NCBI GenBank assembly: GCA_050613775.1
Contig: JBODTK010000010.1
Span: forward strand, 1,364,001-1,428,000
Direction: 5' to 3'
Length of the DNA stretch: 64,000 nucleotides
DNA from: Neocallimastix sp. 'constans'
Taxonomy: Eukaryota
Translations under genes and position numbers: made by a program
Shown here: in pieces, positions 1,896 through 53,363 of the stretch
Position numbering within the stretch: position 1 is the first letter of the stretch
Layout: each line of letters opens with the position of its first letter
Notes under the pieces: generated by a model
Told to the model about the DNA's origin: nothing
The model's database searches: none
Seen by the model: the letters and a program-made list of their open reading frames with translations, nothing else

Positions 1896-4106
1896 GATGA
1901 TCATTTGTTTACAAGTTTAATATTTGCAATATTATTTTAAATTTTCAAGTTTAATATGTACAAGATTATTTAAAATTTTATTTACAAGTTTAATATTGTA
2001 AAGATTTAATAAAATCTTTAATAATTAATTATTACATAATTAATTAATGTAATAAAATTACATAAATTTATGATTTTCGTATATGAAAATTAATTATAAA
2101 TTTATGTAAACTTTTCATAAAGGAAAAATTATTATTTAAATAATTTTGGATAATAACTTAAATCTAAATAATTTATTTAAGTTAGTTAATTTAGTTTAGT
2201 TTATTTAAAATAGTTATTCTATTTAACTTAGTTAATTTAGTTTAGTTAGTTTAAAATACTTTAAAATTAATTTCGGAATAGTTTTAAATAGTTAAAATTA
2301 GTTTAAATAGTTTACAAAAATAGTTTTGAATTGTAAATATATAAACATTAGTATTAATAATATTTATATAATAAATATATAATAAATGAGTTGTTATTGA
2401 ATTTAATTATTATTTTAAATAAGTTGAAAGTTTATTAAATTAATTATTGTTTAGTTTAGTTAATTATTATTTAATAAAATTATTAATAAATATTTTGTTT
2501 ATAAATAAATAGTAATATATGTAAATTAGATAGAAATAATATATTATAATGTAATAATGAAAAAATATAAATACATGTAAATTTCTATAATTAAATCGAT
2601 GTATTAGTTATTGACTATATGATAGTTAATAACAAAAAAGAGATTTAATTTTTTTTAATTAATAAAGATTATTTTATTTAAAAAAAACGAATTTTTATTA
2701 CGTGTTTTTTTTTTTATTTTGGTGTTAAAATTTGTTATTTGTAATCTATTTCTGATAGAACTCTTTACAAATATTTATAAAATTATTTAAAATTTTATTT
2801 ACAAGTTTAATATTTAAAAAATTATTTAAAATTTTATTTGCAAGTTTATTTAATATATAAAGTTATTGTTAAAATAATAATTTAATATTAGAAATAATTA
2901 GGATTAAACATATTTTTTTTTTAACATTAAATATTAATTAACGAATTGATAATATTTGAAAAAAGAATATATTTATTATATTATATTTTAGAATATTATT
3001 AATAAAATATTGTTATTAATAATTGTTTGTAGTTTATTTATAATTTTGTTTATTATTTTATCTTTTATTTATTTTTATTATTATTAAGATAAAATTTTAT
3101 TATAATTTTTCTTAAAAGTATAATTTTATAGAAGAGTTCAATATAATTTTATTTTAAGTTTACGTTTGGGTATCTATTTAATAAATGGAATAAGCATTGG
3201 ATTAGGTTAGTATGATTAAATTTACAAATTATTGATTTATTATTTCATTATAATTTTTTGATTGGTAGACTCGGGGTTGACACGTATAGATTTAAAATCA
3301 AGCAGGGGGGACGGGTATTACCCTGTTTTGATTTTAAATAAAAAAAAATTTCTTTTTATTAAAATTTATTTATTATTTATTAATATTAAAATTTATTTTT
3401 TTAAAGTACATACATTTAATTTTTAAGAAATATTTACAATATTTATATTTTTTTATAAATTTAAAGTATAATTATTTGTTTATAATTTAAGTAATTTTAT
3501 AGAATTATTGAATTAATTTTATATCAATAATTCATTTTTGTTTTAATTTTTATAAATATAATAATATAATATTCAAATATAATTTAATTAAAGATAATTA
3601 TAAAATAAATATATAGAAAATAGTTTTACTATTTTCTTTGATATTTTTAAGTTAAATAAATTGTTTTTAAAGATTAATATAATAAATTAAATAATCTTTA
3701 ATTATTTTAAATAATACTTGTAATTATTTTCAAAAATAAAATAAAATTTTATAATATTTAATTAATAAGTTTGTTAATATTTAAATAATAAATTTTTATA
3801 ATAATTAATAATTTTTAATAATAATTTTTAATAATAAATTTAATTATCAAAATATCTTAAAAGTATATAATTTTTAATATTTACAATAATACTTTAATAT
3901 ATACATATGTTTAATAATATACAACAAATTAATTAATTAAAATTTATTAGATATTATTTGCAAGTTAAATTTAATTTATATTAAAATAAATTATTTATAC
4001 AATGAGGTTTAGGTTATGAAGAATATAGGAAAGAACACTTAATTAAAGAATAATTAATAATATTTTATAACAAAATAAATGTTATTAATTCATTCTTTAC
4101 TATGAT

Positions 4107-5020
4107 TGTAAGAAATAATAATAAATTTTTAAATTTTAATTATTATTTCTTATTATGTATTAATATATTAAATACTTAATAATTAGAAATACATTATTTT
4201 TACATTATCATTATTTATTTTGTAGCAATGTACTATAACTATTACATGTAAAATTATTTAAAAATTAGGAATAGTTAACCAATTATTAGTTAAACTTAAT
4301 AATTAAAAATTTTATTAATATTAGTTAATATTATTTAAATGTTTAGACATAATCAAAAATTATTTAAAATTTTTCATAACAAAAAATTTTTTCTAAATTT
4401 GGACAAATTTATTCAATTTTTAATTTTTTTTTTTTTTTTATTTATTATTTTGGACAAATTTATTCAATTTTTAATTTTTTTTATTTATTATTTTGGACAT
4501 TTAATTAAAATTATATATTATAAAAATAATTAGAAAATCGATCTTTAAGGTTTTCCCGGATACTGATTGGTATTGGTTTTACTTAATGATCCGATGATTA
4601 ATATGTTAGAATATTAATCGAAACTTATTTAGGTTTTTCTTCTAATCTTTTCCTAAATAAGAAATTTGTTAAGATTAGACAATATTTAATTTAAAATTTT
4701 GAAAAAGTATAAATAGAGACTCTTAAGTTCTTTTAGAAATTAAGAGTTATTATTATAAGAAAAATAATAATAACAATAAAATTTTATAAATTAATAGCAA
4801 TAAATTTATTCTTTTTTAATCTTAAAATAAATTTTATTTATTATTTTTTTTAAAAAAAAAAAAAAAATAAATTAAATTTATTTAAATTTTCTTATAATAA
4901 ACTCGATTTATTTTAATAAAACAAATTTAAATTTCTCAATTTTAGTTAATAATAATATTATTAATATAAAATTGTAGATTAGAAATTGATATAAAAGATT
5001 TTTTATTTCAATTTCTAACA
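4107..5020 (+). mobile_element. Solo LTR S-a (family S, diverged)
   Basis: TGTAAG...CTAACA, preceded by ATGAT. Shares internal motifs and the TATAAATA block with other S copies. Confidence 0.75.
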
Positions 5021-5024
5021 ATGA

Positions 5025-5979
5025 TGTAAGAATCTATAATTATTTTTAAATAAAATAATTATATTTTCTTAGTTAAAGTTATAATTATAGCTTTATTTAA
5101 TTATATAATATTTATTCATTTAAATATTATTAATAATTTATTTAACTCCATATTAAATATTCATTAATTTAATACAACAAAATTTATTTAATTAATTATT
5201 ATTCATATATTTATAAATAATTATAGTTTATTTAATTATACATTTAATTATTAAATTTATTAATTCTGGTTTATTTATTTAATTAAATTGTAAACAAATA
5301 TATTATGTATTCTAATATGCATTTTAATAATGTATTCTGTATTTTGTTTATTAATATCATTATGTTATTTTCCTTATTTGTAAATTTATGATTTTATGGT
5401 CGAAATATCTTTTATTATTTTATTCTTTTATTTTCGATCAATTAAATTAGATTAGCTAATCGGTCAATTAGGGTTTTTCCCAATCACTTTTTAAAAGTAA
5501 TTGATTTTACCTAATTGATACGATGATCGATATGGATAGAATATCGATCAAAAAATCTTATCTAGGTTTTTCTCTCTAATCTTTTCCTAGATAAGAGATC
5601 TGTTAAGATTAGAAAACATTTTTAATTTAACCTTATTTTTCAAAAAAGTATAAATAATGCTCTTGAATTCTCTTTGAGAAATCAAGAGTTATTATTATAA
5701 CAATTATAATATAGTAATAACATTAATAAATTTTTTATATTTCCATTTTAATAAAGCAAGTTTTAATAAAACAAATTTAAAAATAAAATAAAATAATCTT
5801 TTTTCTTTGACAATTCTGTGTTATTAGTTTATTATAATTAGTTATAATAAACTCTATCCTATAGAGATAAGTATATTTATCTTTTTTGCTTTCTCAATTT
5901 AATAATAATTATTATTTAGTTATTATTAAATTGTAGTTAATAATTTAATTATAATTAATTTTATAATTAAATTATTACA
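5025..5979 (+). mobile_element. Solo LTR S-b
   Basis: TGTAAGAATC...ATTACA; TSD AATGA at 5020-5024 and 5980-5984. Confidence 0.85.
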
Positions 5980-5985
5980 AATGAT

Positions 5986-6487
5986 TGATACGATATTTTT
6001 ATTAAACATCAATATCAATATTTATTTTATTTTATTTGGACGATAACAGTAGGGAATAATTGACAAAATAATATATTCTAATATTATATAGAATAATACA
6101 CACAATAATAATATTCACACTTTAATATTTAGTTTATTTATTTTATTTATTTATTATCATTCATCAATAAAAATACATCATCAATATAAATATCTGTTAA
6201 CTAGTTAAAATAGAATTAAATCATTTAATAAAATATAATTATTTACTCAAATTTCTTATGTTATTAATGTAAACTAAATATAAAACTATACTAAACTATA
6301 CTAATAAACATGTTTATAGGTTAAATTATTAATAAAACTAAATTAATATTAATAAAAGAACCATTCTTTATTATTATTTACTTACTATATATAATATTAC
6401 TAAATTATTATTAACCAATAAGATTTCATCAAATAATTTCTAACCTAAGTTTCACTAAATTATGGTATTTATGGTGGTACCGTATCA
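5986..6487. mobile_element. Solo LTR, family-A-like
   Basis: TGATACG...CGTATCA inverted termini; 4-bp duplication TGAT at 5982-5985 and 6488-6491. Similar to 30207-30556. Confidence 0.8.
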
Positions 6488-6491
6488 TGAT

Positions 6492-7395
6492 TGTAAAGAA
6501 TAATAATTAATTTTTATTAAAATAAAAAAATAATTATTAACCTTTATTAAATAAAATAATATTTATTTAATAAAATTTATTAACTTTATTATAAAATATT
6601 TTTAATATAAAATTATTATTAATAATTTAAAATTAATATTGTAAAATTATTATTCTTTATCATTGTATTAATTAATAATATTAAAATAATTAAACATTAA
6701 TATTTTTTATATTTGTTAAAATTCATTTGATAATTAAATGTTAAGTTTTAATTTAAATAATTGTTACATTAATATAATTTTAAACAAATCTAATATAAAT
6801 TATAGAATTATAATTTAGAAATAATTATAAAATTATATTAAAAATCATAATGTAACAAATCAAATGAAAAAAGAATAATTAATATTTAAAAAATTAATTA
6901 AAATAAAACAATGTCATGTATAATTGACATTGTTTAAATAAAACAAATGTTAATTGAAGTTTTCCGATTGGAAATTATCGGTTTTTATTCAATTAACATA
7001 TGATCAATTTTATTAATAATTGATCATTAAACTTTTTAGGTTTTTCTCCCAAATCTTTTCCTAAAAAGTTATTCATTAAGATTTGGAACTTTACTATAAA
7101 TAATTCTTGATTTTCTTTATTTTGAAAATCAAGAGTTATTATTATAAGAATATAATTATAATAATAAACAAAATAAATTTTTAATTTTTTAAAAAATAAC
7201 AAAAATCTAAATAAAAATTATTTTTAATAAAAAATATTTTAATAAAAATTTTATTTGAACTAATCTCTTATAATAAACTCCTACCCTATTTTAAGTTTCG
7301 TTAAGTATTTTCTTTTTTTTTAATTTCTCAATTAATATTAGTATTAATTGTAGAAAAGGGTTAAATTTAATTAAGTTTAAATTTAATTCTTTAGA
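6492..7395 (+). mobile_element. Solo LTR S-c (diverged)
   Basis: TGTAAAG...TTTAGA, flanked by ATGAT on both sides, with S-family internal motifs. Confidence 0.75.
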
Positions 7396-7400
7396 ATGAT

Positions 7401-8184
7401 TGTAAGAATCTATAATTATTTTTAACAAAATAATTATATTTTCTTAGTTAGGTTATAATTAATATAACTTTTATTTAACTCATATTTCATTTATACAATT
7501 AATTATAATTAATAATTTATTTAATTATATATTAAAATTTTATTTAGTTTAATATTAAAAATTTATTTAATCAAATAATTTTTATACATTTAAAATAATA
7601 TTAAATTTATTTAATTATTCACTTAATTATTAAATTTATTAGTTTTAGTTTTCTCTCACTTATTAAATCATAAACTAAAACACTATTCTGTATTTTATCA
7701 TGTATTCTGTATTCTATCATGTATTCTGTATTGTATTAATCATGTATTTTATTATTAATGTATTGTTTTATATTTTTTATGTAAAGTTCTATAAAATAGA
7801 ACTAAATAGATTAAATTTTAAATTTTATGATCGAAATAATTTTCATTATTTTATTCTTTTATTTTCGATCATTATATTAGATTAAGTAATCGGTTAATTA
7901 AGGTTTTTCCAATTACTTCTTAAAAGTAATCGGTTTTACTTAATTAACGCGATGATCGATATGGATAGAATATCGATCAAAAAACTTATCTAGGTTTTTC
8001 TTCTAGTCTTTTCCTAGATAAGAGATTTGTTAAGATTAGAACCCCTTTTGATTTTAACCTTATTTTGACAAAAAAGTATAAATAAGGCTCTTGAGTTCTC
8101 TTTGAGAAATCAAGAGTTATTATTATAACAATTATAATATAATAATAATAACAATAAGTTTTAACATTTAAAATTTTTAATAAA
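7401..8184 (+). mobile_element. Solo LTR S-d, 5' part (continues at 14156-14187 and, inverted, at 15947-15760)
   Basis: Colinear with S-b; interrupted by C1 and a B LTR. Confidence 0.85.
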
Positions 8185-9064
8185 TGTAACAAATCTTAAT
8201 GTTACTTAAGATTGTTATAAGGTTTTTTACACAAAAGGTTCTCGACACTAAAGTAATTCAAAATATGTTTTATTAAAATAAGTTTTTTTTATTAGTAAAA
8301 ATATAAATTATTATTTTATTAATTAATCATTGTAATATTTTAAATTACTTTAAAATTAATTAATAAAAGCACAAGTAAAAATATTTTATTATGAAATTTT
8401 ACACCTATTTATAGTTTTTCAGGAAAATTAATTATTTTAAGTTATCAGTTGTTATTAGTAATTATTAGAAATAAAAGAAAATTAAAGAAAATTAAAGAAA
8501 ACAAGTTTTCTTTCTAGAAAATGAATCTTAGATAAAAAATGATAAAAAATATTAATAAAATAGATTTTTCTAGTTTTATCGGTTCAATTGTTTAACCGAT
8601 AAACACTAGTAATTTCTTTAATATTCTAGTTATAATAAATAAAAAGTTATTAAAATTTAGAAAGAGTGGGTGTCGAACCCTAAGGGTTCAGCCCGATGGT
8701 TATGGTAACTTACCATTGAACCATAGTTACTAATTTACTAGTTATGAGTTTCGTTACATGGTCCTCCTCTAGGATTCGGATACCAGACGAATCTCAAAAC
8801 TAGGCTAAACTATACTAAGAAAATTTTATTTAATTATTTTAATATATAAATTATTTTAATAGTTATTTGGTGTAAAATTTCAATACATGATAAACATAAA
8901 AATACATTATTAATAATAAGGTTACATGAATTTAAATAATATTTATATTAATAAGTAAAAATAATAAAGATTATTGATATTGATATTAATAGAAATAAAT
9001 TTGATATTAATAAATATAAATTTTTGTATAATTAATATTATAGATTCATTTTCTAAATATAAGT

Positions 9065-11965
9065 TTATTTGTTTGATTTATTAAATTTTTTGAGTATTTC
9101 TGGACAGTTGAGGTTTTCTTCCGGTTCCCAAGATGCTTCAGATAAAGGATATCCTTTCCACTTAATAAGATATTGAATCTTTCCATAATGTTTTCTTTTA
9201 TCAAGTATTTCTTCTACTTCATATTCTTCTTCATCATTAACTATAATTGGAGGTGGAGGTTCCTTTTTTCTTTTAAAATTGTCTTTGTAGTATGGCTCAA
9301 GTTCTGATACATGGATAATTGGGTGTATTCTTATATTTTTTGGAAAATCAATTTTGTATGTTACTGGAGAGACTTTTTCAATTATTTTATAAGGTCCTAA
9401 CTTTCTTGGTTTTAATTTTTTATTTTTATTTCTTAATATGAGTGAACTGTTTATCCAAACTTTGTCGTTTACTTTGAATTCAGGTGCTTTAATTCTGTGT
9501 TGGTTGGCGAATTTTTCTTGTTTATTTCTTGCTTGTTTTAAATTTTCTTTTAATTGTTTGAAAAGTTTCGCTAAGTTTGTTGTAAATTCTTCAGCACGCG
9601 GAACATCAATAGAACTTGGCACAGCTGGTGAGAAGCGAGGGTTGTAACCATAATTTGCGTAGAAAGGTGATTTATTTAATGATTTTTGAATAGAATTGTT
9701 GTAGCAGAATTCAGCAAGGAATAGATAATTATGCCAATTTGAACCTTTAAAATTAGAGTAACATATGAGAAATTGTTCTACAACGGAGTTCACCCTCTCC
9801 GTTAAACCGTTAGTTTGATGGTGAAAGGGAGAAGAAAGTTTCATTGAGATATTGAGAGTTTTGCAAATAGAAGTCCAGAATTTAGAAGTGAATTGAGTAC
9901 CTCTATCTGAAAGAATTTCATTTGGTAATCCATGAAGTCTGAAAATATGAGTCATGAATGCCTTAGCAGTATCTTCAGAAGAAGGAACGTTAGGAAATGG
10001 GATGAAGTGACCCATTTTTGTGAATCTATCGAGAACAACAAAAATACAAGTATATCCATTAGATGAAGGGAGATTAGTGATGAAATCCATGGAAAGCGAA
10101 GTCCAAGGTCGGTCAGGAATTTCTAGTGGGTTCAGAAATCCATAAGGTTTGTGTCTAGAATCCTTTGAACGACAACAGATTTCACAAGATTTAATATAGT
10201 CTTTAATATCTTTTTGCATAGATGACCACCAAAAGTCACGATTGATTAAGGAGAAAGTTTTCTTGAAACCAAAATGACCAGCAGATGGGGAGTCATGACA
10301 GATATTTAATACGGAAGAACGACAGTTAAGGGGAACATAAATTTTTCCATCAAAGAGTAAGAAGTTGTTACTTAAAGAAAATTTATTAGATTCTGGGAAG
10401 TCTTGTTTAGAGTTGAGTTTTTTGCAGATTTCATTATAATATTTATCTTTCTTGTATTCATGGAGTATTTGATCATTTAAAGAGGCAATGGAAGTGGTAG
10501 CGCAAAAATTTTCAGGTTTTAAGACGTTGAAAGGAATATCAGAGGACAGTTCTTCTTCATTTGATGCATAATCAGGTCTTCGAGAAAGTGCATTCGCATA
10601 TATTTCGCTAAAAATATCCTTAAATGGAAGTAATTTCTTTGGTAATGATTTATTTACTATATTACTTTCTTTATCTTCTTCTTCTTTATCATTCTTTTTA
10701 ATAGTATTTAAAGGAACATAAGTAGTGAAGGCGCTGGGAAGTACAAGACAATTGGAAATACAATAGTTGGATTTGAAAGAGAGTTCTTTTGAGGCAAAGT
10801 CTATAGTGGGATTATGAGTTTCTAGCCAGTCAATGCCTAAAATAGCACAATACGAAGGAAGGTCAACAACATAGAAACTTGTTTTACATATGTGGTTTTT
10901 ATATTTTAAGGATATTGGTGCAGTTTTACCTATGATTGACTGAATACCACCGATTCCAGATACGTTAGGGAGATTACATTCACTAGAGTAAGGAATATTG
11001 TTTTCTTTTGCGAAGTATACATCCATTAAATTAAGTTGAGAGCCGCAGTCCAGAAGAATTTTAGTTTTTGTAGAGATATTGGAAACATTAAGAGAGAATT
11101 CAAAAATTGGTAGCTTTACATCGGGTTGATCAGAAATTCTTATTCTTGGAATGGTTTTAGGTTCAAGATTAGTGATATGAGAACTGCTTGAAGAGGCTTT
11201 ATTTCTGTTTACTAGTGGGCAATGGTCAAGGGAATGGTTAGCTGATCCACAATAGGCACAAAGATGTTCTTTTCTTCTTCTTTCCTTTTCTTCATTAGAC
11301 AAAGGACCTCGGGTATTGAATTTGAAAGGCTTTTTCCCTTTATTTTGTCTTCTATTATTATTATTTCTGTTATTATTTCTGTTATCATTATTATTATTAT
11401 TATTTGATCCGTTTTGTGGATTAGAAAATTGTCTATGAGCAGCAATACGACTATCTAGTCTAGAGGCAATAGTTTGTAATGCGAAAAGAGATCTTGGTCC
11501 TGGAAACATTTCATATATTTTGGTAGCAATTTGATCGTTAAGTCCATTGAGGAAAGCATCCATTTTAGCTTCTTCATTCCATGAAGATTCGTCAGAATAT
11601 CTATTGAATTCGAGAATATAGTTTGTTATTTCACCGATGCGTCTTTGTTTAATTGTCTTCAATTTCTGGTTAGCAATGAAAGTCGAATCGTAGCTCCCAA
11701 AAGTAGCCTTAAATCTTGAGGTGAATTGTTGATAGTTATTTAAACATGGATCGTTATTTTCAATTAAAGTAGCAGCCCAGTTCATTGCAGAGCTGTAGAG
11801 TCTAGAAATGATATACGCAACCTTTATTGGATCATTATTAAATCGTTCGGGATCAAGCATGAATATTAAATTCATTTTTGCTAAAAATCCTTTAAAGTAA
11901 CGACGATCTCCAGCGAATCCATCTTTATTGGTAGCACTGGCATTTAAAAAGGTATCTTCTTCCAT
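9065..11965 (-). CDS. Gag-protease-integrase-chromodomain polyprotein lacking RT and RNase H
   Basis: [14 protein letters not shown] knuckle, LLDCGS protease, HHCC/DDE integrase, GPY, chromodomain [22 protein letters not shown]. No YxDD motif. Confidence 0.9.
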
Positions 11966-12642
11966 TTTCTTGCTTTTTCAAAATAGATTTATTTGATAAT
12001 TTAATTATTGAAGAACTTTTATTTAAGGTAAATACAATTTAAATTTCGCTTTTAATGCCTTACAACTAAAAAAAAACCGGCAAAAGCTACTAACTAGAGG
12101 TATATACTAGACCTCAAAATAAAATTAAAAACTATATATTTTAATGTCGCTTTACCTTCACGACCAACCTATAGCCTTCGGTGACTATAGTTCCTTATTC
12201 GCCAGAGCTTATTCGAATAGAGCAACCACCGAACTGTTGAAGTTAGTTGGTAGGATGTGGTTCTCTTTTAATCCACACTCTCTTTACACTCTAGGGTTTT
12301 GAAGCCCGTTTATATTCAAATAATTAACGACTATAGTTTCTAACCTACTGAAACTAGTTAATATACGCCGAAACTCTGTTTATGAGCTCTAACCGCTCTT
12401 AGTATATTTATCGTATTACCTTAAAAGATGGACACGAAAACTTATTAAAAATTAAAAATTCTTTTTTTTTTTTTTGTGTTGCTGTTCTTTCAGTGAATTT
12501 TAACTGAAAGAGCTGAGATGTAGGGCTTACGTCTGAGCCTACCAGCGAGGGCCAACACAAAATTAAGGAATTAAATAAAAAGAATAAAAGAGAATAAGGA
12601 TTGTCTATACAGATTCTCCTTATTAGTAAATTTTATTAAAAA

Positions 12643-12674
<32 letters not shown>

Positions 12675-13383
12675 TTATTTAGCTAATTATTAATATATGT
12701 ATTTAGTTTTAAGTATTAATTTATCTAAAATATATTATATTCCTTCACTTAGATTATAGTTAAATTTTATCCAAAATTATGTATATGTCCACTTAATTTT
12801 CTTTCAGAATTTATCTAATAAATAGTATATTTGTTCAATTAGTTTTACTATAAATTTATCTAATAAATAATATATTTGTTCAATTAATTTTACTATAGAA
12901 TTTATCTAATAAATAGTATATTTGTTCAATTAATTTTACTATAAATTTATCTAATAAATAATATATTAGTTCAATTAATTTTATTATAATATTTATCTAA
13001 GATACTATATATTCATTCACCTAAATATATTATAGAATATAGGGTTAGGGTTATATATTCATTTAATAATAAAATTTTTTTTTTTTTTTTTTATTAAAAT
13101 CCAAAAGGTATAGGTAGAGTTTCAAAGAGGAATCCAAAGGTAGATAGAATTTAATTTGAAAGTATGTTTATAATAAAGAGTAAGCGAAGAATCTAAGGAA
13201 AAATTGGGCAAGAATTTGAGTAAAGAAGGAATACAAAAGAAAGGTAGATAACCTATAAAAAGAAATAATCCAAAAGATACTAGATTCAAGAATAGAATTT
13301 TTTAAGGAAGTATTCCACAGAAAAAATATTGTTTTGGTGATAATATAATTATTAGCGGTAGCCCAAGAGTTGTTTAAAGTTTT

Positions 13384-13532
13384 AAAAGAGTAGATTCCAA
13401 AAGAGTAGATTCCAAAAGAGTAGATTTCAAAAAAGTAGATTCTTAAAAGAGTAGATTCCAAAAGAGTAGATTCCAAAAGAGTAGATTTCAAAAAATTAGA
13501 TTCTTAAAAGAGTAGATTCCAAAAGATAGATT
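13384..13532. repeat. ~15-16-bp tandem repeat (AAAAGAGTAGATTCC)n in the C1 5' leader
   Basis: Directly visible, next to the PBS. Confidence 0.9.
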
Positions 13533-14187
13533 TGTCTCGAGAAGGTTTCGTGTTTTTTGTCAAAGGGTGCTTTTATTGTAACAAATCTTAATGTTACTTA
13601 AGATTGTTATAAGGTTTTTTACACAAAAGGTTCTCGACACTAAAGTAATTCAAAATATGTTTTATTAAAATAAGTTTTTTTTATTAGTAAAAATATAAAT
13701 TATTATTTTATTAATTAATCATTGTAATATTTTAAATTACTTTAAAATTAATTAATAAAAGCACAAGTAAAAATATTTTATTATGAAATTTTACACCTAT
13801 TTATAGTTTTTCAGGAAAATTAATTATTTTAAGTTATCAGTTGTTATTAGTAATTATTAGAAATAAAAGAAAATTAAAGAAAATTAAAGAAAACAAGTTT
13901 TCTTTCTAGAAAATGAATCTTAGATAAAAAATGATAAAAAATATTAATAAAATAGATTTTTCTAGTTTTATCGGTTCAATTGTTTAACCGATAAACACTA
14001 GTAATTTCTTTAATATTCTAGTTATAATAAATAAAAAGTTATTAAAATTTGGAAAGAGTGGGTGTCGAACCCTAAGGGTTCAGCCCGATGGTTATGGTAA
14101 CTTACAATTGAACCATAGTTACTAATTTACTAGTTATGAGTTTCGTTACAATAAATAATAAAACAAATTATTTTAATAAAACAAATT

Positions 14188-14922
14188 TGTCGAAATTACA
14201 ACTGAATTAAATTTCAATTTCAATTAATTTCAATTAAAATTATTAAAAACAAAATAATTAATAAAAATTTATAATTCATTAATTATTCTTTAAATTTTAT
14301 TTATTTTATAATATTATAAGTTATTTGATCATCTTAGGACCAGCTTAGGCCTACTGATTCTAATGATATCATATTAAACTTAAATATTATTAATAAATAA
14401 AATATTTATTAACATGAATCATTTGGTCATGTCATCCTTGATTCATAAATTAATGTTTATGTATTAATTTATGTTATATTGATTTAATTAATTATTAATT
14501 ATTAATTACTATATTAAATATTTAAATTTAATATTATATTATATATATTAGCTAATATATTAGATTAAAAAATATAATTTATTTATATTAAACATATTCT
14601 TATACTAAATATTATTATTATCAACTTTATATTATTATTATCAATATTCTCAAACCTACAAAGTATAAAAAGAAAATTCAAATTTATCTTTTTGTCCTTT
14701 GTAAGGTTATAGTTAACCTATTATAATATAACTATATATTTTTATTAATAAATAAAAATTTTTATCATATCAAACCAATTATTAGTTTTAATTAAGTGTT
14801 AAATTAACAAATTTAACTTTATAACTCTTTTATTTTAGTAATTTACTTATATCTATATAGTTATATTATATAGATATATCAACCTGATTCCTCGTTAAAT
14901 TCAACCTGTTTACTTTTTAACA
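14188..14922 (+). mobile_element. Family-B solo LTR (735 bp), flanks swapped by inversion
   Basis: TGTCGAA...TTAACA; flanks AAATT and TACAA. Confidence 0.95.
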
Positions 14923-15755
14923 TACAACTTAACGACTAATTCATTAAGTTGAGAAAATAAAATAAAATAAATTTTTTTACCTTTAATGTAGAGTTTATTA
15001 TAAAATTAATTATAATAATAACACAAAATGTAAGAGAAGAATTGTTTGTATAAATTGATCTTAAAAATATGTTTTTGAATAAAATATTTTTATTAATTTA
15101 TTAAAGTTAAAAATATAAAAATGTTACTATTATAACTATGTTTTTTATAATAATAACTCTTGATTTCTCAAAGAGAACTCAAGAGCCTTATTTATATTTT
15201 TTTATGAAAATAAGGTTAAATAAGAAAGGGTTTTCTAATCTTAACAAATCTCTTATCTAGGAAAAGATTAGATAGAAAAACCTAGATAAGTTTTCGATCG
15301 ATATTCTATCCATATCGATCATCGCATTAATTAAGTAAAACCGATTACTTCTAAAAAGTAATTGGAAAAAATCTTAATTAACCGATTTTCCAATCTAATG
15401 ATCGAAAATAAAAGAATAAAATAATAAAAGATATTTCGATCATATAATTTATCCTTATATTAAAAATATAAAATTAAATAGTTAATAAAATACAGAATAC
15501 ATTATAAAATACAGAATACATTATAAAATACAGAATAAAATACAATACAAAATACATTAGTTACAGTAGAGAATTTAGCATATTGTAAATATATTATTTA
15601 AAATTAATTAAATAAATTTTGTTAAATTAATGAATATTTAAAATTAAATTAAATAAATTTAATAAATATTATATGTAATTAAATAAAGTTATAGTTATAA
15701 TAACTTAACTAAGAAAATATAATTATTTGCTAACAAATAATTATAGATTCTTACA
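14923..15755 (-). mobile_element. Solo LTR S-e, main part, inverted (3' end at 21505-21553)
   Basis: Near-identical to the intact S solo at 52445-53363. Confidence 0.9.
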
Positions 15756-17206
15756 TCATTGTAATAATTTAATTAAAAAATTATAATTAAATTATTAATC
15801 ATTAATATTAGCTCTAACTGCTAATATTAAAGGTTTAGAAAAGAATCATACTTACCTATGGTTCTTTCTAATTATCGAGTTTATTATAACGAATTATAAT
15901 AGACGAAACACTAAAATTGATAAGGAAAAGTTTTAATTATAAAATTTTGTTAAAAAGTAAACAGGTTGAATTTAACGAGGAATCAGGTTGATATATCTAT
16001 ATAATATAACTATATAGATATAAGTAAATTACTAAAATAAAAGAGTTATAAAGTTAAATTTGTTAATTTAACACTTAATTAAAACTAATAATTGGTTTGA
16101 TATGATAAAAATTTTTATTTATTAATAAAAATATATAGTTATATTATAATAGGTTAACTATAACCTTACAAATGACAAAAAGATAAATTTGAATTTTCTT
16201 TTTATACTTTGTAGGTTTGAGAATATTGATAATAATAATATAAAGTTGATAATAATAATATTTAGTATAAGAATATGTTTAATATAAATAAATTATATTT
16301 TTTAATCTAATATATTAGCTAATATATATAATATAATATTAAATTTAAATATTTAATATAGTAATTAATAATTAATAATTAATTAAATCAATATAACATA
16401 AATTAATACATAAACATTAATTTATGAATCAAGGATGACATGACCAAATGATTCATGTTAATAAATATTTTATTTATTAATAATATTTAAGTTTAATATG
16501 ATATCATTAGAATCAGTAGGCCTAAGCTGGTCCTAAGATGATCAAATAACTTACAATATTATAAAATAAATAAAATTTAAAGAATAATTAATGAATTATA
16601 AATTTTTATTAATTATTTTGTTTTTAATAATTTTAATTGAAATTAATTGAAATTGAAATTTAATTCAGTTGTAATTTCGACAACGCCCTTCCACAAAAAT
16701 CGGATTCCAGACGATTTTGTGTAACGTTACATAAAGAAATTATTATATTTATAAAATTGTATATTTTAAAAATTTTTTTTTTTTTTTTTTTTTTTTTTGA
16801 AGTAAAAAGGTCACATGAGTCCTTTAAAGAACACATTACAAGTGGCCATTTCATGGAAATTTCGAAATTGTCAAAATTTACTGAAATTAAAATTTTGTTA
16901 TAAAATTAAATATCGAGAAATATAATGGTGTGAATTTTATTAAAAATTTCGTTGAAAAAATGTAAAATTGAAATTTTGAAATTGAAATTGAAATTTCATC
17001 TTAATTTTATGCATTAAATTGAAAATTTTTAAATATAGTGAAAATTTATAATTTAATGAATATAATAATGTAAAAATAAATAAAGTATTATTAAATTTCG
17101 ATTTTTTAAAAATTTTTGAAATTTTGAAATGTAAAATTTTAAATTAACTAATTTAATTTTGAAATATTATTATTATTTAATATACTATTTATAGCTTAAG
17201 TATAAT

Positions 17207-17266
<60 letters not shown>

Positions 17267-17272
<6 letters not shown>

Positions 17273-18306
17273 ATAAGAAAGAGAAGTGAATTTTCTATTA
17301 TTCTTTAAATATTCTTGATATATTCTTTGATTCCTTGGATTATTTTCAACTTCATAAGAAGGCACCCAATTACTTGAACTTTTATATTTGTATCTAACTC
17401 TATATTCGTAGCAGTTTTTCTTGTAGTTTGTCCTAAATCCAGAAATTTCAATAATATCATTAATGGATTCATTGTGCGAACTTCTATTTAAAAACTTTTG
17501 CGGAGTTGGGACATAAGGTTCCAATTCAGAGATATGAAAGATTGGATGATGTTTTGGAAAAGGTGACTTTTTAAGATCAATTTTATAATTATTATTCTCT
17601 AAAACATCGATTACCTTGTAAGGTCCATATTTGCAAGGAGCGAGTTTAGAACAATCTTCAATATTTAAAGAAGGAGGTGCTTGAATCCAAACCAAGTCAC
17701 CTTCTTTTATTACAGGAGGTGGCATCCTTTTCTTATCCGCATAATTTTTATATAATTCTTTAGATCTTAATAAGACATCTTTAATATGATTAAAACTTGT
17801 ACTTACATTTTTAATAAATTTACTATTAGTATCAACTTGGGGTAGTAAGAAATATTCGTCCATAGATGGATGAAATCCATAGTTAATAAAGAAAGGTGTT
17901 TCTTTTGTAGATTCATTGACTGAATTATTATAAGCGAACTCTGCAAGATAGATCCAATTAATCCAATCGTCGTGATAATAAGATCTTGAATAAGCTCTTA
18001 AATACTGTTCAATAAAGGAGTTACATCTCTCAACTTGACCAACAGTCTCATGATGATCTGTTGTAGCTAATTTGGATTTAATATTAAGTAATTTCATGAA
18101 TTCTTTCCAAAGTGCACTTGTAAACTGAGGACCTCTATCTGTATACATATCATAAGGAAGGCCATGTAATTTATAAACATTATTCATAAATGCTTTGGCA
18201 GTTTGTTTTGCATCAGGAATTTGTTTGAAAGGTATTAAGTGAATCATTTTAGAGAAACGATCCACTACAACCATTATTACCGTATATCCCTTTGAATCCG
18301 GGAGGC
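17267..18306 (-). pseudogene. B1 integrase core and C-terminus with degenerate chromodomain-like tail
   Basis: VVDRFSK, TDRGPQF, GQVER, GPY. Near-identical to the end of 48926-50719. Confidence 0.9.
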
Positions 18307-19660
18307 TGAACGTAAATCTAATTTTGTAAAATACTTTGCTCCTTTAACCTTTTCAATAATTTCATTAATAAGAGGTATGGGGTACGAGTTTCTTATAGTA
18401 ACAGCGTTTAACTTCCTATAGTCTACGCATAACCGAAGTGTACCATCTTTTTTCTTTTGGAATAGAACTGGATAACCTGCAGGTGATTCAGATGGTCTAA
18501 TAAATCCTTTTTTTAGGTTTTCTTTTATATATTCTTTCAAAACTTTATTTTCCTCTTCGGTTAAGGGATAGATTGGACCATAGTGAAGGGAAGCGTCCTT
18601 CTCCAGCACTATTTTGCAGTCGGTTAAACGATGTGGGGGAAGTTTATCGGCTTCGGCTTTACTAAAAACAATAAATAGATCGCGATATTGAGGCGGAATA
18701 TCTTCAATATTTGGATCTTCATTGTCATTTTTATTAATTTCTTTATTTGATAAGAAGGAATATATTAAAAAATTGTAATTATAGTCATTGTTTAAATTAA
18801 AATTGTTTTTTAAATATTTATTTTGTTTTTTGAAATAATATTTATATTTATTAATAAAATAATGATTTTTATTAAAAAATTTTTTATAATTAAATTTATC
18901 ACAAAATTTTGAAAATTTATTAAGGTTAAGGTTATTAAGTTTTTTATTAAAAAATTTTTTATTATAATTAAACTTCTGATCAAATTTTTTTAAATTTTTT
19001 GAAAAATTTTTATAATTAAATTTTTTTATTGATTTATAAAAAAGTAAATAATTTTTTAAAATTTTATTTTTCATCGACTGTAGATATAAATTGTTTTTGC
19101 AATATTTATTAGGATTTTTGTTATTTTTTTTTGAAAAATAATAATTTAAGTAAGAATATAATATATTCTTATCATAATTATAGTGAATTTTGAATTTTCG
19201 CATGAATTGATTACCAAAAAGTAGATCAGTTGGTATGCAATTTGTTATTAGAAATTTTTCATTGTAATTTTTAAAATAAAATTTTTTATTCTTTTGTATT
19301 TTTATTTGAAATTTTAGCCAAACGTACTGATCTATCTTAGTAGTAGAACCAGATATACCTTTGACTGAAATTTTATTTTTTAAATTATAAATTTTTAAAT
19401 TTAGTTTTTGAACTAAATTTTTTGTAATAAAATTACAAAATGATCCAGAATCTAGCATAGATTCAGATGTAATTTTTTGGTTATTTTTAATTTTTAATTT
19501 ATTATTATTAATTGGTAGTCTTGTTGGAATGTAGCAATGGAATAAAAGAAAAGTTGAAGGTAGTTTTTGGGTTGTGATGTTATCAAATGAAGGAAAGTTA
19601 TAATAAATTGTTTTTACATTTTTTGATGAATTGGACTCCGAGTGAAGTCCTTCATTTAGT
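18277..19660 (-). pseudogene. pol: B1 pol 5' part: protease and RT N-terminus, cut by a deletion
   Basis: MLDSGS..DLLFG protease; [18 protein letters not shown], then a jump into integrase sequence. Confidence 0.9.
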
Positions 19661-20735
19661 TTTTTGAATTATTATTATTTGTACTATTATTACTGTTATT
19701 ATTAATTTTATTAAAGTTATTATTATTATGGACTTTATTATAATTATTATTATAATATTTGTTATAATTGTTATTATTATTATATTTATTATTATTGTTG
19801 TTGTTGTTATTGTGGACATTAGAAGGCTTTTTCTTTAAATTTTTATTACCATTAGATTTTAATTGACCTTTAGATTTCAAGGAATTTTCGTAAAGAATAC
19901 ATCTAGTATAAATAGTACTAAGATCAGAAGGAAATTCATCCATTTTTTCTATTTCTTCCTGGAACCTTGGGTGCAATCCATTATAAAAGAATAAAACTAA
20001 AGCTTCTTCATTCCAATTCAAACATGTTGTAAGGGTTCGAAATTCATCAATATAATCATTAATTTTCCCAAATGTGTGAGAAATTTTTGCGAGTTGGATC
20101 ATGGCTAATTTCTTACTGGCAACATTATTAAAAGCTTTCCTTAATTCTTTAATCAATTCTTCTAATGTTGCTGGACTTCTATCTTTATATTTGGCATAAT
20201 ACCAATTACGAGCACCATCTCTTAAGCGTGACTTAACATAATTAATTTTTACATCCATAGTAGATTCACAGTTAGGATAAGTCTTAAAAGTATCTTCACA
20301 GAGCTGACAAAAGAGATCGGTTTCCTTAGTATCCCCAGTGAAAAATCCAGGTTCTGGGACTTCTTGAAGTGTATTGGGAATAGTATTCCTCATTATTACA
20401 TCATTGTCTGCCTCTCTTCTTGTTGATATAGAAGCGTTATCATCTTGATTTTGAGAAGCATTAACATTAGGAATAAAATCGAATTTCTGATTTAAAATGC
20501 TGGTAATAGAAGAAAGTTGTTTTATGATATTCTTGTTATCCCTATTTAAAGTAAAAAGTTTCTTTTGAAGATCTTCATTATATTTATTAAAATCTTCTCT
20601 TGATAAGAATGTAACTTCTGCATCTTTTGCCAGTTCAGAGACAGTAATCTGAGCGTCTGTTCTTAGCTTATTTACTTCCGACATAGGAGCAAAGTCAGGA
20701 TAGGAGTTTGCCCACACGTTATTATAAAGGGACAT
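19656..20735 (-). CDS. gag: Family-B Gag (no CCHC knuckle seen)
   Basis: Retrotransposon gag motifs LRDGARNWY and FYNGLHP; lies directly after the PBS. Confidence 0.9.
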
Positions 20736-21504
20736 ATCAAGGTGATTCTCTTTTCTAAGGTAAGGTTATTGTTAAAAAGTAAACAGGTTGAATTTAACGA
20801 GGAATCAGGTTGATATATCTATATAATATAACTATATAGATATAAGTAAATTACTAAAATAAAAGAGTTATAAAGTTAAATTTGTTAATTTAACACTTAA
20901 TTAAAACTAATAATTGGTTTGATATGATAAAAATTTTTATTTATTAATAAAAATATATAGTTATATTATAATAGGTTAACTATAACCTTACAAAGGACAA
21001 AAAGATAAATTTGAATTTTCTTTTTATACTTTGTAGGTTTGAGAATATTGATAATAATAATATAAAGTTGATAATAATAATATTTAGTATAAGAATATGT
21101 TTAATATAAATAAATTATATTTTTTAATCTAATATATTAGCTAATATATATAATATAATATTAAATTTAAATATTTAATATAGTAATTAATAATTAATAA
21201 TTAATTAAATCAATATAACATAAATTAATACATAAACATTAATTTATGAATCAAGGATGACATGACCAAATGATTCATGTTAATAAATATTTTATTTATT
21301 AATAATATTTAAGTTTAATATGATATCATTAGAATCAGTAGGCCTAAGCTGGTCCTAAGATGATCAAATAACTTATAATATTATAAAATAAATAAAATTT
21401 AAAGAATAATTAATGAATTATAAATTTTTATTAATTATTTTGTTTTTAATAATTTTAATTGAAATTAATTGAAATTGAAATTTAATTCAGTTGTAATTTC
21501 GACA

Positions 21505-21553
21505 TTGTAGTTAATAATTCTATTTTGAGTTAGTTCTTAATAGAATTATTACA
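21505..21553 (+). mobile_element. 3' terminal 49 bp of S-e
   Basis: Reverse complement of 52445-52493; ends ATTACA. Confidence 0.9.
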
Positions 21554-21569
21554 AATCATTTTTTAAGCA

Positions 21570-21662
21570 GCTCGTGTAGCCTAGAGGTTTAAGGCGTCGT
21601 GCTTATAAGGGAGTACCTCTTATGCAACGCGAAGATCGCGGGTTCGACCCCCGCCATGAGCA
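21570..21662 (+). tRNA. tRNA-Ile(TAT) with 19-nt intron (21608-21626)
   Basis: Acceptor GCTCGTG/CATGAGC, D stem GCCT/AGGC, anticodon stem TCGTG/CGCGA with CT-TAT-A, T arm GCGGG-TTCGACC-CCCGC, downstream T runs. Confidence 0.97.
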
Positions 21663-29492: not shown

Positions 29493-29634
29493 TGTAAAAA
29501 AAATAATTACTTGATAAAAAAAAGAAAAATAAATGAAAGATTATATATAAAAAAAAAGTATTCTATTATGATAATTATATTGTAATTATAATTTTCTTAT
29601 TATTTTCATATTAATTTATTTGATCTTGCTTTCC

Positions 29635-29651
29635 CCCCACGTTGGGCGCCA
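29635..29651 (-). promoter_or_regulatory. PBS, tRNA-Lys(CTT)-like
   Basis: TGGCGCCCAACGTGGGG, 5 nt inside the LTR; matches the classical tRNA-Lys1,2 PBS. Confidence 0.85.
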
Positions 29652-30206
29652 AATTTTGATACGTTATTTTTATAAGTATCAATGTTTTTGTGGTTAGCAA
29701 GATTGTATTAAATAAAAATATATTCTAATATAAAAATATATAATTACAATACACGTTAATATTAAAACAAAATATAAAAAAAAATTATAGTTTTGTCGTT
29801 TTATTTATTTATTTAAATTATTTATGTCGTAATACAAATTTTATAATAAAATGTTATTAAAGATCTTATTAATTATTTATTTCTAACTAACTTATTACTA
29901 TTAAAATTTTTTGATAAATAAATATATTCCCCAAATAAATTTATTTTAACCAATTTATCTCTATTTTTTCCCAAATAAAAAAACCTCCTTTTCTTTAAAG
30001 AATTATAATAATTTTTCTTTTATATTTCTAATTTCTAATTTACTATAAATTAAATCCTATTGGCTATTAACTAATTAAATAAATTTAATAATTTTTATAT
30101 TACTATTTATTATTATAATATACATTTATAATTTAACTAATTATTTATTATATTTAATTTTATTTCTTGATAATATTCTCTTTTTATTTAAATACTGCAT
30201 CAGATT

Positions 30207-46459: not shown

Positions 46460-47388
46460 AAAATGGTTGATACAATTAATTTAAAAAGTATCATAAAATA
46501 TGGGAAAAGCAAGAGGGAATTAATCAAGAAATATCGTATTTATGAAATAGTATAATAATTATTATATATTTATATAATACACTCAAATTATTATTTTAGA
46601 ATATAATGTTCATTTTATTATGTTTATTTATTAAAATTATTCACTTTATTATATTTATTTATTAAAATAATTATTCACTATTATTCATTCTCAATTAATA
46701 CATTTCAATAAAAATAAAAACACAACATTTTTTTTTTTAATTAAAACTTCCTAATTTTTATCTTATTATTCTCTATATTATTATTATTCAAAATTTGTAC
46801 TTTTACATAATTAATTATATTATATATATTTTTATAATAAACTTATATTAATAATAAAATAATAAAATAATTTTATAATATTATATCTTATTAAATATTA
46901 ATTTTAACTTATTTAGAAAATATTAATAATAAAATTATTTACAATAATATTTAAAATAATAATTATATCACTTTACATTCTTATTAAATATCTCGTATCA
47001 GATTGTTGCAGGATTTCGAATAATTTAAATTTTTATTTTCAAAAATAATATATTCTTAATAATTAGATTTTCTTTTTTTTATCTTTTATTAACTTTTAAA
47101 TTTTTTATTAAGTATTTTCTTTTTCTTTTATATTTTTTTTTTTACTACATGAATTTTATAATTATTTTAATTCTTATTAGAATTAATTATTACATGTGAT
47201 TTTAATAATATTTTTTAAAAGTTATTTTAATAATAAAAATATTAATATTAATATAATTAATATTATTTTTAATGACAAAATATTAATAATGATAAAATTA
47301 ATAAATTTAACAATAAAATTATTGATAATATTTTCGATAATATAATTCTTAAAACATTTTAATATAAATAATAATTAAATATAATAAT

Positions 47389-50822: not shown

Positions 50823-52303
50823 TGTTGAAATTACAACTGAATTAAATTTTAATTTCAATTAATTTCAATTAAAATTATTAATGTTGAAATTACACTGAAT
50901 TAAATTTCAATTTCAATTAATTTCAATTAAAATTATTAATGTTGAAATTACAACTGAATTAAATTTCAATTTCAATTAATTTCAATTAAAATTATTAAAA
51001 ACAAAATAATTAATAAAAATTTATAATTCATTAATTATTCTTTAAATTTTATTTTTTTTATAATATTATAAGTTATTTGATCATCTTAGGACCAGCTTAG
51101 GCCTACTGATTCTAATGATATCATATTAAACTTAAATATTATTAATAAATAAAATATTTATTAACATGAATCATTTGGTCATGTCATCCTTGATTCATAA
51201 ATTAATGTTTATGTATTAATTTATGTTATATTGATTTAATTAATTATTAATTATTAATTACTATATTAAATATTTAAATTTAATATTATATTATATATAT
51301 TAGCTAATATATTAGATTAAAAAATATAATTTATTTATATTAAACATATTCTTATACTAAATATTATTATTATCAACTTTATATTATTATTATCAATATT
51401 CTCAAACCTACAAAGTATAAAAAGAAAATTCAAATTTATCTTTTTGTTCTTTGTAAGGTTATAGTTAACCTATTATAATATAACTATATATTTATATTAA
51501 TAAATAAAAATTTTTATCATATCAAACCAATTATTAGTTTTAATTAAGTGTTAAATTAACAAATTTAACTTTATAACTCTTTTATTTTAGTAATTTACTT
51601 ATATCTATATAGTTATATTATATAGATATATCAACCTGATTCCTCGTTAAATTCAACCCGTTTACTTTTTAACAATAACCTTACCTTAGAAAAGAGAATC
51701 ACCTTGATATGTCCCTTTATAATACTGGCAAAAGATGCAGAAGTTACATTCTTATCAAGAGAAGATTTTAATAAATATAATGAAGATCTTCAAAAGAAAC
51801 TTTTTACTTTAAATAGGGATAACAAGAATATCATAAAACAACTTTCTTCTATTACCAGCATTTTAAATCAGAAATTCGATTTTATTCCTAATGTTAATGC
51901 TTCTCAAAATCAAGATGATAACGCTTCTATATCAACAAGAAGAGAGGCAGACAATGATGTAATAATGAGGAATACTATTCCCAATACACTTCAAGAAGTC
52001 CCAGAACCTGGATTTTTCACTGGGGATACTAAGGAAACCGATCTCTTTTGTCAGCTCTGTGAAGATACTATTAAGACTTATCCTAACTGTGAATCTACTA
52101 TGAATGTAAAAATTAATTATGTTAAGTCACGCTTAAGAGATGGTGCTCGTAATTGGTATTATGCCAAATATAAAGATAGAAGTCCAGCAACATTAGAAGA
52201 ATTGATTAAAGAATTAAGGAAAGCTTTTAATAATGTTGCCAGTAAAAAATTAGCCATGATCCAACTCGCAAAAATTTCTCACACATTTGGGAAAATTAAT
52301 GAA
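50823..52303 (+). mobile_element. Nested B3: two 58-59-bp LTR-start duplicates, full LTR 50940-51674, PBS, truncated gag
   Basis: TGTTGAAATTAC at 50823, 50882 and 50940. The gag ATG at 51709 is followed by an 86-bp deletion relative to B1. Confidence 0.88.
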
Positions 52304-52444
52304 TTATAAATTTTTATTAATTATTTTGTTTTTAATAATTTTAATTGAAATTAATTGAAATTGAAATTTAATTCAGTTGTAATTTTAACAATTGTATAAT
52401 TTAAATCATTAGTTTATTGTATTTTGGCTAGTTCCGTAACAAGA

Positions 52445-53363
52445 TGTAATAATTCTATTAAGAACTAACTCAAAATAGAATTATTAACTACAACTTAACG
52501 ACTAATTCATTAAGTTGAGAAAATAAAATAAAATAAATTTTTTTTTTTTACCTTTAGAGTAGAGTTTATTATAAAATTAATTATAATAATAACACAAAAA
52601 GTAAGAAAAGAATTGTTTGTATAAATTGATTTTAAAAATATGTTTTTGAATAAAATATTTTTATTAATTTATTAAAGTTAAAAATATAAAATTGTTACTA
52701 TTATAACTATGTTTTTTATAATAATAACTCTTGATTTCTCAAAGAGAACTCAAGAGCCTTATTTATATTTTTTTATGAAAATAAGGTTAAATAAGAAAGG
52801 GTTTTCTAATCTTAACAAATCTCTTATCTAGGAAAAGATTAGATAGAAAAACCTAGATAAGTTTTCGATCGATATTCTATCCATATCGATCATCGCATTA
52901 ATTAAGTAAAACCGATTACTTCTAAAAAGTAATTGGAAAAAATCTTAATTAACCGATTTTCCAATCTAATGATCGAAAATAAAAGAATAAAATAATAAAA
53001 GATATTTCGATCATATAATTTATCCTTATATTACAAATATAAAATTAAATAGTTAATAAAATACAGAATACATTATAAAATACAGAATACATTATAAAAT
53101 ACAGAATACATTATAAAATACAGAATACATTATAAAATACAGAATAAAATACAATACAAAATACATTAGTTACAGTAGAGAATTTAGCATATTGTAAATA
53201 TATTATTTAAAATTAATTAAATAAATTTTGTTAAATTAATGAATATTTAAAATTAAATTAAATAATTTAATAAATATTATATGTAATTAAATAAAGTTAT
53301 AGTTATAATAACTTAACTAAGAAAATATAATTATTTGCTAACAAATAATTATAAATTCTTACA
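52445..53363 (-). mobile_element. Intact family-S solo LTR
   Basis: TG..CA termini; TSD CAAGA at 52440-52444 and 53364-53368. Confidence 0.93.

Follow-up and report, generated by a model that had tools for sequence, protein, structure and literature searches.

Ty3/gypsy elements that target Pol III start sites are reported to place their LTR end 15–17 bp from tRNA genes (PMC5014426). Ty3/sigma of S. cerevisiae and Tyl3/Tyl6 of Yarrowia lipolytica combine this distance with a 5-bp TSD and a 1-bp jitter (PMC5014426, 10.1101/2021.07.27.453949), and Tj1 of Schizosaccharomyces japonicus is described as a self-priming Tf1/sushi chromovirus that is Pol III-targeted and inserts in the direction of the tRNA (PMC4600332). 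In the AT-rich genome of Dictyostelium, LTRs of the Ty3/gypsy elements DGLT-A and Skipper-2 lie 13–33 bp upstream of tRNAs, and a table footnote mentions successive insertions at one tRNA that displaced earlier ones (PMC5911963, PMC5006619).

The locus described here belongs beside these systems. In a 64-kb window (the whole stretch of DNA analysed), five solo LTRs of a family termed S stand head to tail, the last of them (S-e) ending at 21553, 16 nt before a tRNA-Ile(UAU) gene at 21570. The proposed likeness to Ty3 in distance holds for S-e, whose 16 bp fits the reported 15–17 bp (PMC5014426). As described for Tj1, S has a 5-bp TSD, probably a self-priming PBS, and a position just upstream of the tRNA in the same orientation (5/5 array copies); however, in S. 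pombe Tj1 inserts 5–11 bp ahead of the mature 5' end against 15–16 bp for S, the Tj1 LTR measures 244 bp against 0.9–1.0 kb, and Tj1 is tRNA-oriented, whereas an S-like LTR from another record (L001) is not (PMC4600332). DGLT-A and Skipper-2 use a wider window, with about 20 copies in a gene-dense genome, while here a 3-bp window is used in a retrotransposon-packed region (PMC5911963, PMC5006619). Transposon dimers formed by double insertion, as reported by McGurk and Barbash, also carry a copy of the target site inside each tandem junction, but their anchor is a sequence motif and a single family is involved, whereas the array holds six elements from several subfamilies and two families (10.1101/158386). 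Our literature searches turned up no stack of five or six elements for Ty3/sigma or Tyl3/Tyl6, and no report of Pol III-start targeting in this fungal lineage; a 2024 study of anaerobic-fungal LTR retrotransposons (PMID 38750926) may bear on novelty. The array likely reflects Ty3/Tj1-like targeting of Pol III starts that is not exclusive. The mechanism is already known; the depth of the insertion record is unusual.

Layout of the array and its nested elements

The initial annotation had placed five S solo LTRs about 16 bp before tRNA-Ile. This stack was borne out, all six of the quoted spacers were found in place, and a sixth solo LTR, W, was added. W belongs to one other family, has a 4-bp TSD and occupies the S-b/S-c junction, where AATGAT (5980–5985) is followed by W, then TGAT, then S-c. 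Its best match within the window is the LTR of element Y at 30207. The features are as follows.

4102..4106, + strand: outer TSD copy ATGAT, without a preceding LTR end, which makes S-a the left array edge
4107..5020, + strand: S-a, solo LTR, 914 bp, TGT...ACA
5021–5024: spacer ATGA between S-a and S-b
5025..5979, + strand: S-b, solo LTR, 955 bp
5986..6487, − strand (inferred from the ORFs of Y): W, solo LTR, 502 bp, TGATACG...CGTATCA, TSD TGAT
6492..7395, + strand: S-c, solo LTR, 904 bp, the most diverged copy
7396–7400: spacer ATGAT between S-c and S-d
7401..8184, + strand: S-d, first piece
8185..14150, − strand: nested U element, TSD ATAAA, LTRs 572/574 identical
14156..14187, + strand: S-d, second piece, ending in TSD copy AAATT
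14188..14922: inverted T LTR at the left inversion breakpoint
14923..15755, − strand: S-e, 5' piece, inverted
15756..15759, − strand: spacer ATGA between S-d and S-e (reads 15759–15756)
15760..15942, − strand: S-d, 3' piece, inverted
15948..21504, − strand: nested T element, internally deleted, gag and integrase matches, LTRs 733/735 identical
21510..21553, + strand: S-e, last 44 bp
21554..21569, + strand: spacer between S-e and the tRNA, 16 nt, beginning AATCAT (21554–21559)
21570..21662, + strand: tRNA-Ile(UAU) with a 19–20-nt intron, A box at 21577, B box at 21641
52445..53363, − strand: S-f, solo LTR with perfect 5-bp TSD CAAGA, 868/876 aligned bases as in S-e

Six sites in the window carry the 28-nt S core motif, where 100 shuffles give an expectation of 0.00; five lie in the array and the sixth in S-f. 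LTR ends are TG...CA in five of the six window copies, S-c ending in AGA instead of ACA, and S-a to S-e represent five related subfamilies. The tRNA gene is supported by an Rfam match of 55 bits and by a cloverleaf fold with the intron after the UAU loop. An ARAGORN call of Ala(TGC) was rejected, as it needs a non-canonical intron place; fold and Rfam alignment point to Ile(UAU).

The inversion proposed inside the array is confirmed by swapped TSDs. AAATT (14183–14187 and 15943–15947) is the TSD of a solo T LTR within S-d, and TTGTA (14923–14927 and 21505–21509) that of the longer T element within S-e. The flip is either biological or an assembly flip between inverted T LTRs of 99.7–100% identity, and the array reconstruction is the same either way. 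The nested U element carries gag, integrase and chromodomain matches, and the domain search returned no RT match in it.

Target-site duplications and the order of insertion

All six junctions carry ATGAT-derived words, each 4–5-nt spacer word having a chance of 0.002–0.006 at local base composition, and S cuts at positions 1 bp apart (ATGAT versus AATGA). Allowing at most one mismatch, the array collapses with TSD lengths of 5 for S and 4 for W only, among six length combinations tried. The spacer before the tRNA opens with AATCA, the TSD of S-e bearing a single mismatch, C at −13; G stands at this position in one X11 contig, matching the TSD-model prediction for the ancestral site. The collapse upholds the proposal of repeated independent insertion with a TSD regenerated under 1-bp jitter, and we regard separate insertions as almost certain.

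A single solo LTR multiplied by tandem duplication or unequal crossing-over and then diverging would share the head-to-tail layout and common orientation. Array neighbours, however, share only 58–77% identity, against 99% between S-e and S-f 31 kb away; AU tests reject both array monophyly (p 0.024) and a clade of S-d and S-e (p 0.001), in line with the original argument against duplication, and spacer lengths differ as TSD offsets predict. Tandem duplication is thus refuted by the identities and tree tests, and we give it practically no weight.

The order of events is less constrained. With these TSD lengths, 270 of 720 insertion orders fit the junctions, and the only relation forced by the TSDs is that S-a preceded S-b, because the 5-bp TSD of S-b (AATGA) borrows the last A of S-a. 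Exactly one of the 270 (a, b, W, c, d, e) has all six elements landing <40 bp from the tRNA, at 15, 16, 14, 15, 15 and 16 bp, and under this order alone do S-a to S-d come to lie at 15–16 bp; the other 269 include insertions far from the tRNA. The idea of a chronological tape with the youngest copy nearest the tRNA therefore stands as the single fitting order if tRNA anchoring is assumed, but the TSDs themselves do not impose it, and we hold this strict order to be somewhat better supported than not. Divergence plotted against position fails as a clock, since S-a to S-e fall in separate subfamilies and their identity to S-e does not rise or fall monotonically along the array (S-a 66%, S-b 80%, S-c 61%, S-d 77%).

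Copies outside the array and rival explanations

Of the two S copies recovered in full beyond the array, L001 adjoins an A/B-box unit and S-f does not. L001 (core identity 58–72%) is separated by 16 bp from an A/B-box unit of tRNA type within a U-family LTR. The distance from its start to a canonical A box is 23 nt, the B box following 43 nt on, and S-e is also 23 nt from the tRNA A box. L001 is opposite in orientation to this unit, its single visible flank reads TTTTA, and the unit neither matches tRNA in Rfam nor folds into a cloverleaf. S-f is part of a second, four-family pile-up (X/Y/Q/S-f/V) within 10 nt of the V LTR, where TSDs overlap. For the initial annotation, S LTRs elsewhere lacking an adjacent tRNA would count against its reading, and S-f does so in part: no tRNA or A/B-box pair was found near either of its ends in the window (V's far end lies outside it). 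Stacking here thus also happens without a visible tRNA. A Pol III promoter at the V LTR start was sought as an explanation of S-f; a TGG stands 23 nt from S-f, but for want of an A/B pair the idea was set aside. A hidden tRNA may lie beyond V but is not favoured, because V's LTRs look older than Y's: the Y pair, the youngest, has 0/540 substitutions against 6/509 for V (Fisher p 0.013).

In favour of Pol III anchoring, 325 of 504 contigs over the S-e-end/tRNA stretch in run X1 are 99+% alike. On the other side, no recognisable tRNA start was seen at +15/16 behind the S-e end among the 9 loose-end rows listed of 37, eight of these nine being mixed consensuses of 2–8 contigs with agreement of 0.55–0.8; none of the contigs listed bridges the S-e/tRNA stretch completely, and such a gap proves nothing. 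Also on that side, X11 contig depths suggest roughly 200 near-identical S-e ends versus ~14 tRNA-Ile copies, rough figures since depth is not copy number. The S core pattern was found at 1 locus in metagenome contigs and in no viral contigs or prokaryote genomes, and contig and genome searches yielded no autonomous S element, S integrase or S coding sequence.

These observations can be set against three accounts of the site. Overall, six insertions at a 3-bp-wide site 14–16 bp upstream of tRNA-Ile, re-chosen via a Pol III-tethered integrase, form the explanation we consider probable, and Pol III anchoring of the S insertions is held with the same good confidence. Six LTR-retrotransposons would have inserted separately at one site 14–16 bp before the gene, with integrase action suggested by the TSDs; the integrase, like those of Ty3 and Tj1, would be tethered to the Pol III initiation complex, each new element would land beside the tRNA and push older ones outward, and LTR–LTR recombination would then have left solo LTRs. 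If ATGAT itself were the target, regenerated by each TSD with the tRNA nearby by chance, the ATGAT-derived words at every junction would follow, and a double-insertion route of this kind is documented for Drosophila elements (10.1101/158386). The flanks of S-f (CAAGA) and L001 (TTTTA) differ, so ATGAT is not a sequence target for S, and the S cut site moves by 1 bp; this account is very unlikely, although it may hold for W, the TSDs of W and Y being TGAT and GATT.

Insertion might instead favour existing LTR ends, through open chromatin or a bound protein, so that one initial insertion would seed a pile-up, leaving the order arbitrary and the tRNA relevant to the first event at most. Such a junction hot spot would accommodate the second pile-up, whose TSDs overlap and which shows no tRNA at that distance, the tRNA-distant insertions in nearly all fitting orders of the main array, and two X1 loose-end rows listed that read S end, 5 nt, S-like start. 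It would also suit the two of three compatible second-pile-up orders that place Y, whose LTRs are the youngest pair, 0.7–1.6 kb from V. That ordering, however, depends on a one-mismatch TSD for X, and the S–S rows are mixed consensuses that fit stacks at other tRNAs too. A hot spot further leaves unexplained the array position at −15/−16 of the tRNA, the equal A-box distance of L001, and why the least-diverged copy is tRNA-proximal, S-e being the only array copy with a near-identical relative in the window. We judge it unlikely. Pol III-start targeting is probably strong but not exclusive.

Priming, family assignment and implications

The first 12 nt beyond the L001 LTR form the complement of a motif shared by all seven S LTRs, which sits 34–38 nt after the TATAAATA box, and this 12-nt word recurs behind the S-e end in one of the X1 loose-end rows. 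S is therefore likely self-primed, its candidate PBS complementing a motif in the element's own LTR. Judged from the LTRs and ~40 nt of internal sequence, it is likely a Tf1/sushi-type Ty3/gypsy family like Tj1. Contact of the S integrase with TFIIIB (Brf1/TBP) is putative, by analogy with the known systems. Ty3 is tRNA-Met-primed. So is Tyl3 (PMC5014426), in contrast to the likely self-priming of S.

The same priming layout, together with gypsy domains, recurs in the other families U, U' and T; U carries a 966-aa ORF and U' a gag-pol ORF of 1427 aa that matches RT, integrase and chromodomain. A/B-box pairs spaced 43–44 nt are present in U (one of two LTRs), in both U' LTRs and at L001, with four in the window versus 0 in 100 shuffles. 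The U-family LTR abutted by L001 resembles the Helenus/TRIMp3 TRIMs, described in rust and agaric fungi as well as in animals and Selaginella, in carrying tRNA-type A and B boxes, but Helenus is short and non-autonomous, whereas U' has its long gag-pol ORF (PMC10886601). On a speculative reading that we hold to be less likely than not, several families may compete for a few bases at Pol III starts in anaerobic gut fungi, writing ordered multi-family tapes, with the tRNA-type promoter in the LTR of the chromovirus family U serving as a mobile landing pad for S; if so, one transposon would spread the target sites of another.

Targeting of tRNA genes has been interpreted as a way to find a safe haven in compact, gene-dense genomes (PMC5006619), an explanation that fits less well in a retrotransposon-packed region. 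A site-specific native integrase would interest builders of genetic tools for anaerobic gut fungi. A Pol III-targeting, self-priming element in a probable anaerobic gut fungus would represent one more origin of this habit outside yeasts and slime moulds, or else a deep root of it, and, if the order holds, each tRNA flank would provide a relative chronology of retrotransposon families without a molecular clock.

Anatomy of the LTR array

The window (GC content 24%) is crowded with Ty3/gypsy elements and holds a single tRNA gene, whose predicted fold is a cloverleaf in which an intron follows the UAU loop. One polyprotein has a 70%-identical relative in a JGI 'Orpsp1' gene model, a label we take to denote an Orpinomyces-type anaerobic gut fungus, and the array's words are present in 18 runs, 11 of which are animal feces metagenomes; an anaerobic gut fungus is therefore the probable host. 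As initially annotated, five solo LTRs of the S family lie head-to-tail with short spacers derived from target-site duplications (TSDs), S-e ending 16 nt from the tRNA; W, a solo LTR of another family, additionally occupies the b|c junction.

LTR array, nested elements removed
ATGAT, left spacer
4107-5020, S-a, followed by ATGA
5025-5979, S-b, followed by AATGAT
5986-6487, W, followed by TGAT
6492-7395, S-c, followed by ATGAT
S-d, followed by ATGA
S-e, followed by 16 nt
21570-21662, tRNA-Ile(UAU)

W carries a 4-bp TSD and is closest to the LTR of element Y at 30207. S-d is interrupted by element U (TSD ATAAA) and a solo T LTR (TSD AAATT), and S-e by a T element of greater length (TSD TTGTA). 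The AAATT and TTGTA duplications are exchanged across inverted T LTRs, which shows that the intervening segment lies inverted. All three nested insertions (8185, 14188 and 21504) fall in the tRNA-proximal LTRs d and e; a, b, W and c contain no such insertion. The nested T and U elements gave no RT hits (18274-18383 and 9065-11965, respectively), and probably either moved in trans or suffered deletions after inserting; the deletion in nested T, relative to the copy at 47645, starts near 18306. About 760 bp left of S-a lies a GC-centred inverted repeat (3280-3340), possibly a small DNA-transposon remnant.

Independent insertions and their order

Adjacent array copies are only 58-77% identical, whereas S-e agrees at 868 of 876 aligned positions with S-f, a sixth S copy 31 kb away. 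In a tree built on the conserved core of 7 sequences (about 260 columns, no sequence excluded), b groups with d and e with f. The AU test rejects monophyly of the five array copies (p 0.024) as well as a pairing of d with e (p 0.001), in agreement with the earlier view that the array is not a tandem duplication.

All 720 insertion orders were enumerated under six TSD-length combinations, tolerating one mismatch. Only S=5 with W=4 was workable, leaving 270 compatible orders that all collapse to the same empty site; the sole forced relation is a before b, because the TSD of S-b borrows the last A of S-a. The order a,b,W,c,d,e is the single one that places every insertion near the tRNA (15, 16, 14, 15, 15 and 16 bp), and is therefore the natural reading provided that the tRNA is the anchor. 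The chronology first proposed, youngest nearest the tRNA, is thus plausible but conditional on tRNA anchoring, and is not proven by the junctions by themselves. Independent, modest hints come from S-e, which alone among the array copies has a near-identical relative within the window and whose end is plentiful and little diverged in four runs. One contig of sequencing run X11 has G at -13, where the model requires that the C seen in the window arose later.

The Pol III start as a probable anchor

The distance of the S array to the tRNA matches the 15-17 bp that PMC5014426 reports for elements of the Ty3 type, bearing out the likeness to Ty3 suggested initially. ATGAT is very unlikely as a sequence target, since S copies outside the array have different flanks. 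A single S-like copy, L001, was found in a public collection; a canonical A box lies 23 nt from its start, the same offset as from S-e to the tRNA A box, and is followed 43 nt further by a B box. This A/B unit was rejected as a tRNA and sits in a U-family LTR, in the orientation opposite to the array's case.

A/B box pairs (43-44 nt apart) in U-family chromovirus LTRs
8723, minus strand, window
35849, plus strand, window
42237, plus strand, window
949, minus strand, L001

In U and in U', a related element with a 1427-aa gag-pol ORF, the distance between LTR start and A box is 35 nt; instead of a cloverleaf, the A/B segments form two hairpins. In contrast to Helenus TRIMs, U' looks autonomous. 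U, U' and T carry 10-nt self-complementary sites in place of the tRNA-type primer-binding site of element X (29632-29656), presumably tRNA-Lys, which lies 5 nt from its LTR and begins TGGCGCCC.

Of the two S LTRs seen in full outside the array, L001 adjoins an A/B unit, and S-f has neither a tRNA nor an A/B pair beside it; S-f thus tells in part against the initial annotation, which had named S LTRs away from tRNAs as a refutation. None of nine displayed loose-end rows (consensuses of contigs running past a matched stretch) behind the S-e end contains a tRNA start, eight of them being mixed consensuses, and no clear LTR end stands at -15/-16 in the four rows displayed for the upstream side of other tRNA-Ile copies. 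Depth ratios in X11, which are not copy numbers, suggest roughly 200 S-e-like ends against about 14 tRNA-Ile copies. A six-T run at tRNA -11 to -6 (21559-21564), shorter in one X11 contig, would suffice to terminate Pol III transcription that began upstream of it.

S-f belongs to a second pile-up, in which TSDs again overlap the ends of neighbours.

Second pile-up (21713-53374), elements abutting within 3-10 nt
X, 50 nt downstream of the tRNA
Y, TSD GATT
Q, solo LTR, TSD AGAT
52445-53363, S-f, TSD CAAGA
V

The TSD of X fits only when one mismatch is allowed, and Q is split by a T element (TSD ATTGT). One of three compatible orders puts every insertion 7-10 nt from V. This pile-up would reflect either a Pol III gene on the far side of V, past the window's limits, or a tendency of elements here to accumulate at LTR ends as well. 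The LTRs of V differ at 6/509 positions and those of Y at 0/540 (p 0.013); those of V thus look older, which does not speak for such a hidden gene. Accumulation at LTR ends accords with S-f, which has no adjoining tRNA or A/B pair yet lies among overlapping TSDs. The right LTR of Y (46460-47000) spans 541 bp against 886 bp on the left, without substitution over 540 bases, and is therefore truncated on its inner side. The V LTR start (53380-53440) folds as a closed stem-loop (z -2.9), and the T element at 50825-52390, part of whose interior is inverted and in which pieces of the LTR ends recur, suggests a rearranged or aberrant insertion.

S elements among known systems

In 7/7 copies the most conserved S motif is found 34-38 nt past a TATAAATA box. 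A perfect 12-nt complement of this motif comes immediately after the LTR in L001 and recurs in a loose-end row of run X1 behind the S-e end. This layout is that of self-priming Tf1/sushi elements, as described in 10.1101/2022.12.06.519325 and PMC4600332. It implies that longer S elements exist; none was recovered.

Ty3, Tyl3/Tyl6, Tca8, Tj1 and DGLT-A are established as elements that target Pol III starts (PMC5911963), with TFIIIB binding as the structural basis in Ty3 (10.1101/2021.07.27.453949); successive insertion at one tRNA is on record in Dictyostelium (PMC5006619), as are TSD-separated dimers in Drosophila (10.1101/158386). A literature search of partial coverage, which does not establish absence from print, found no report of elements that target tRNA genes in anaerobic gut fungi, nor of a stack as deep as the S/W array. 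The array is a real, unusually clean record of repeated insertion. It probably works like Ty3/Tj1 targeting, with S a candidate member of the elements that target Pol III starts.
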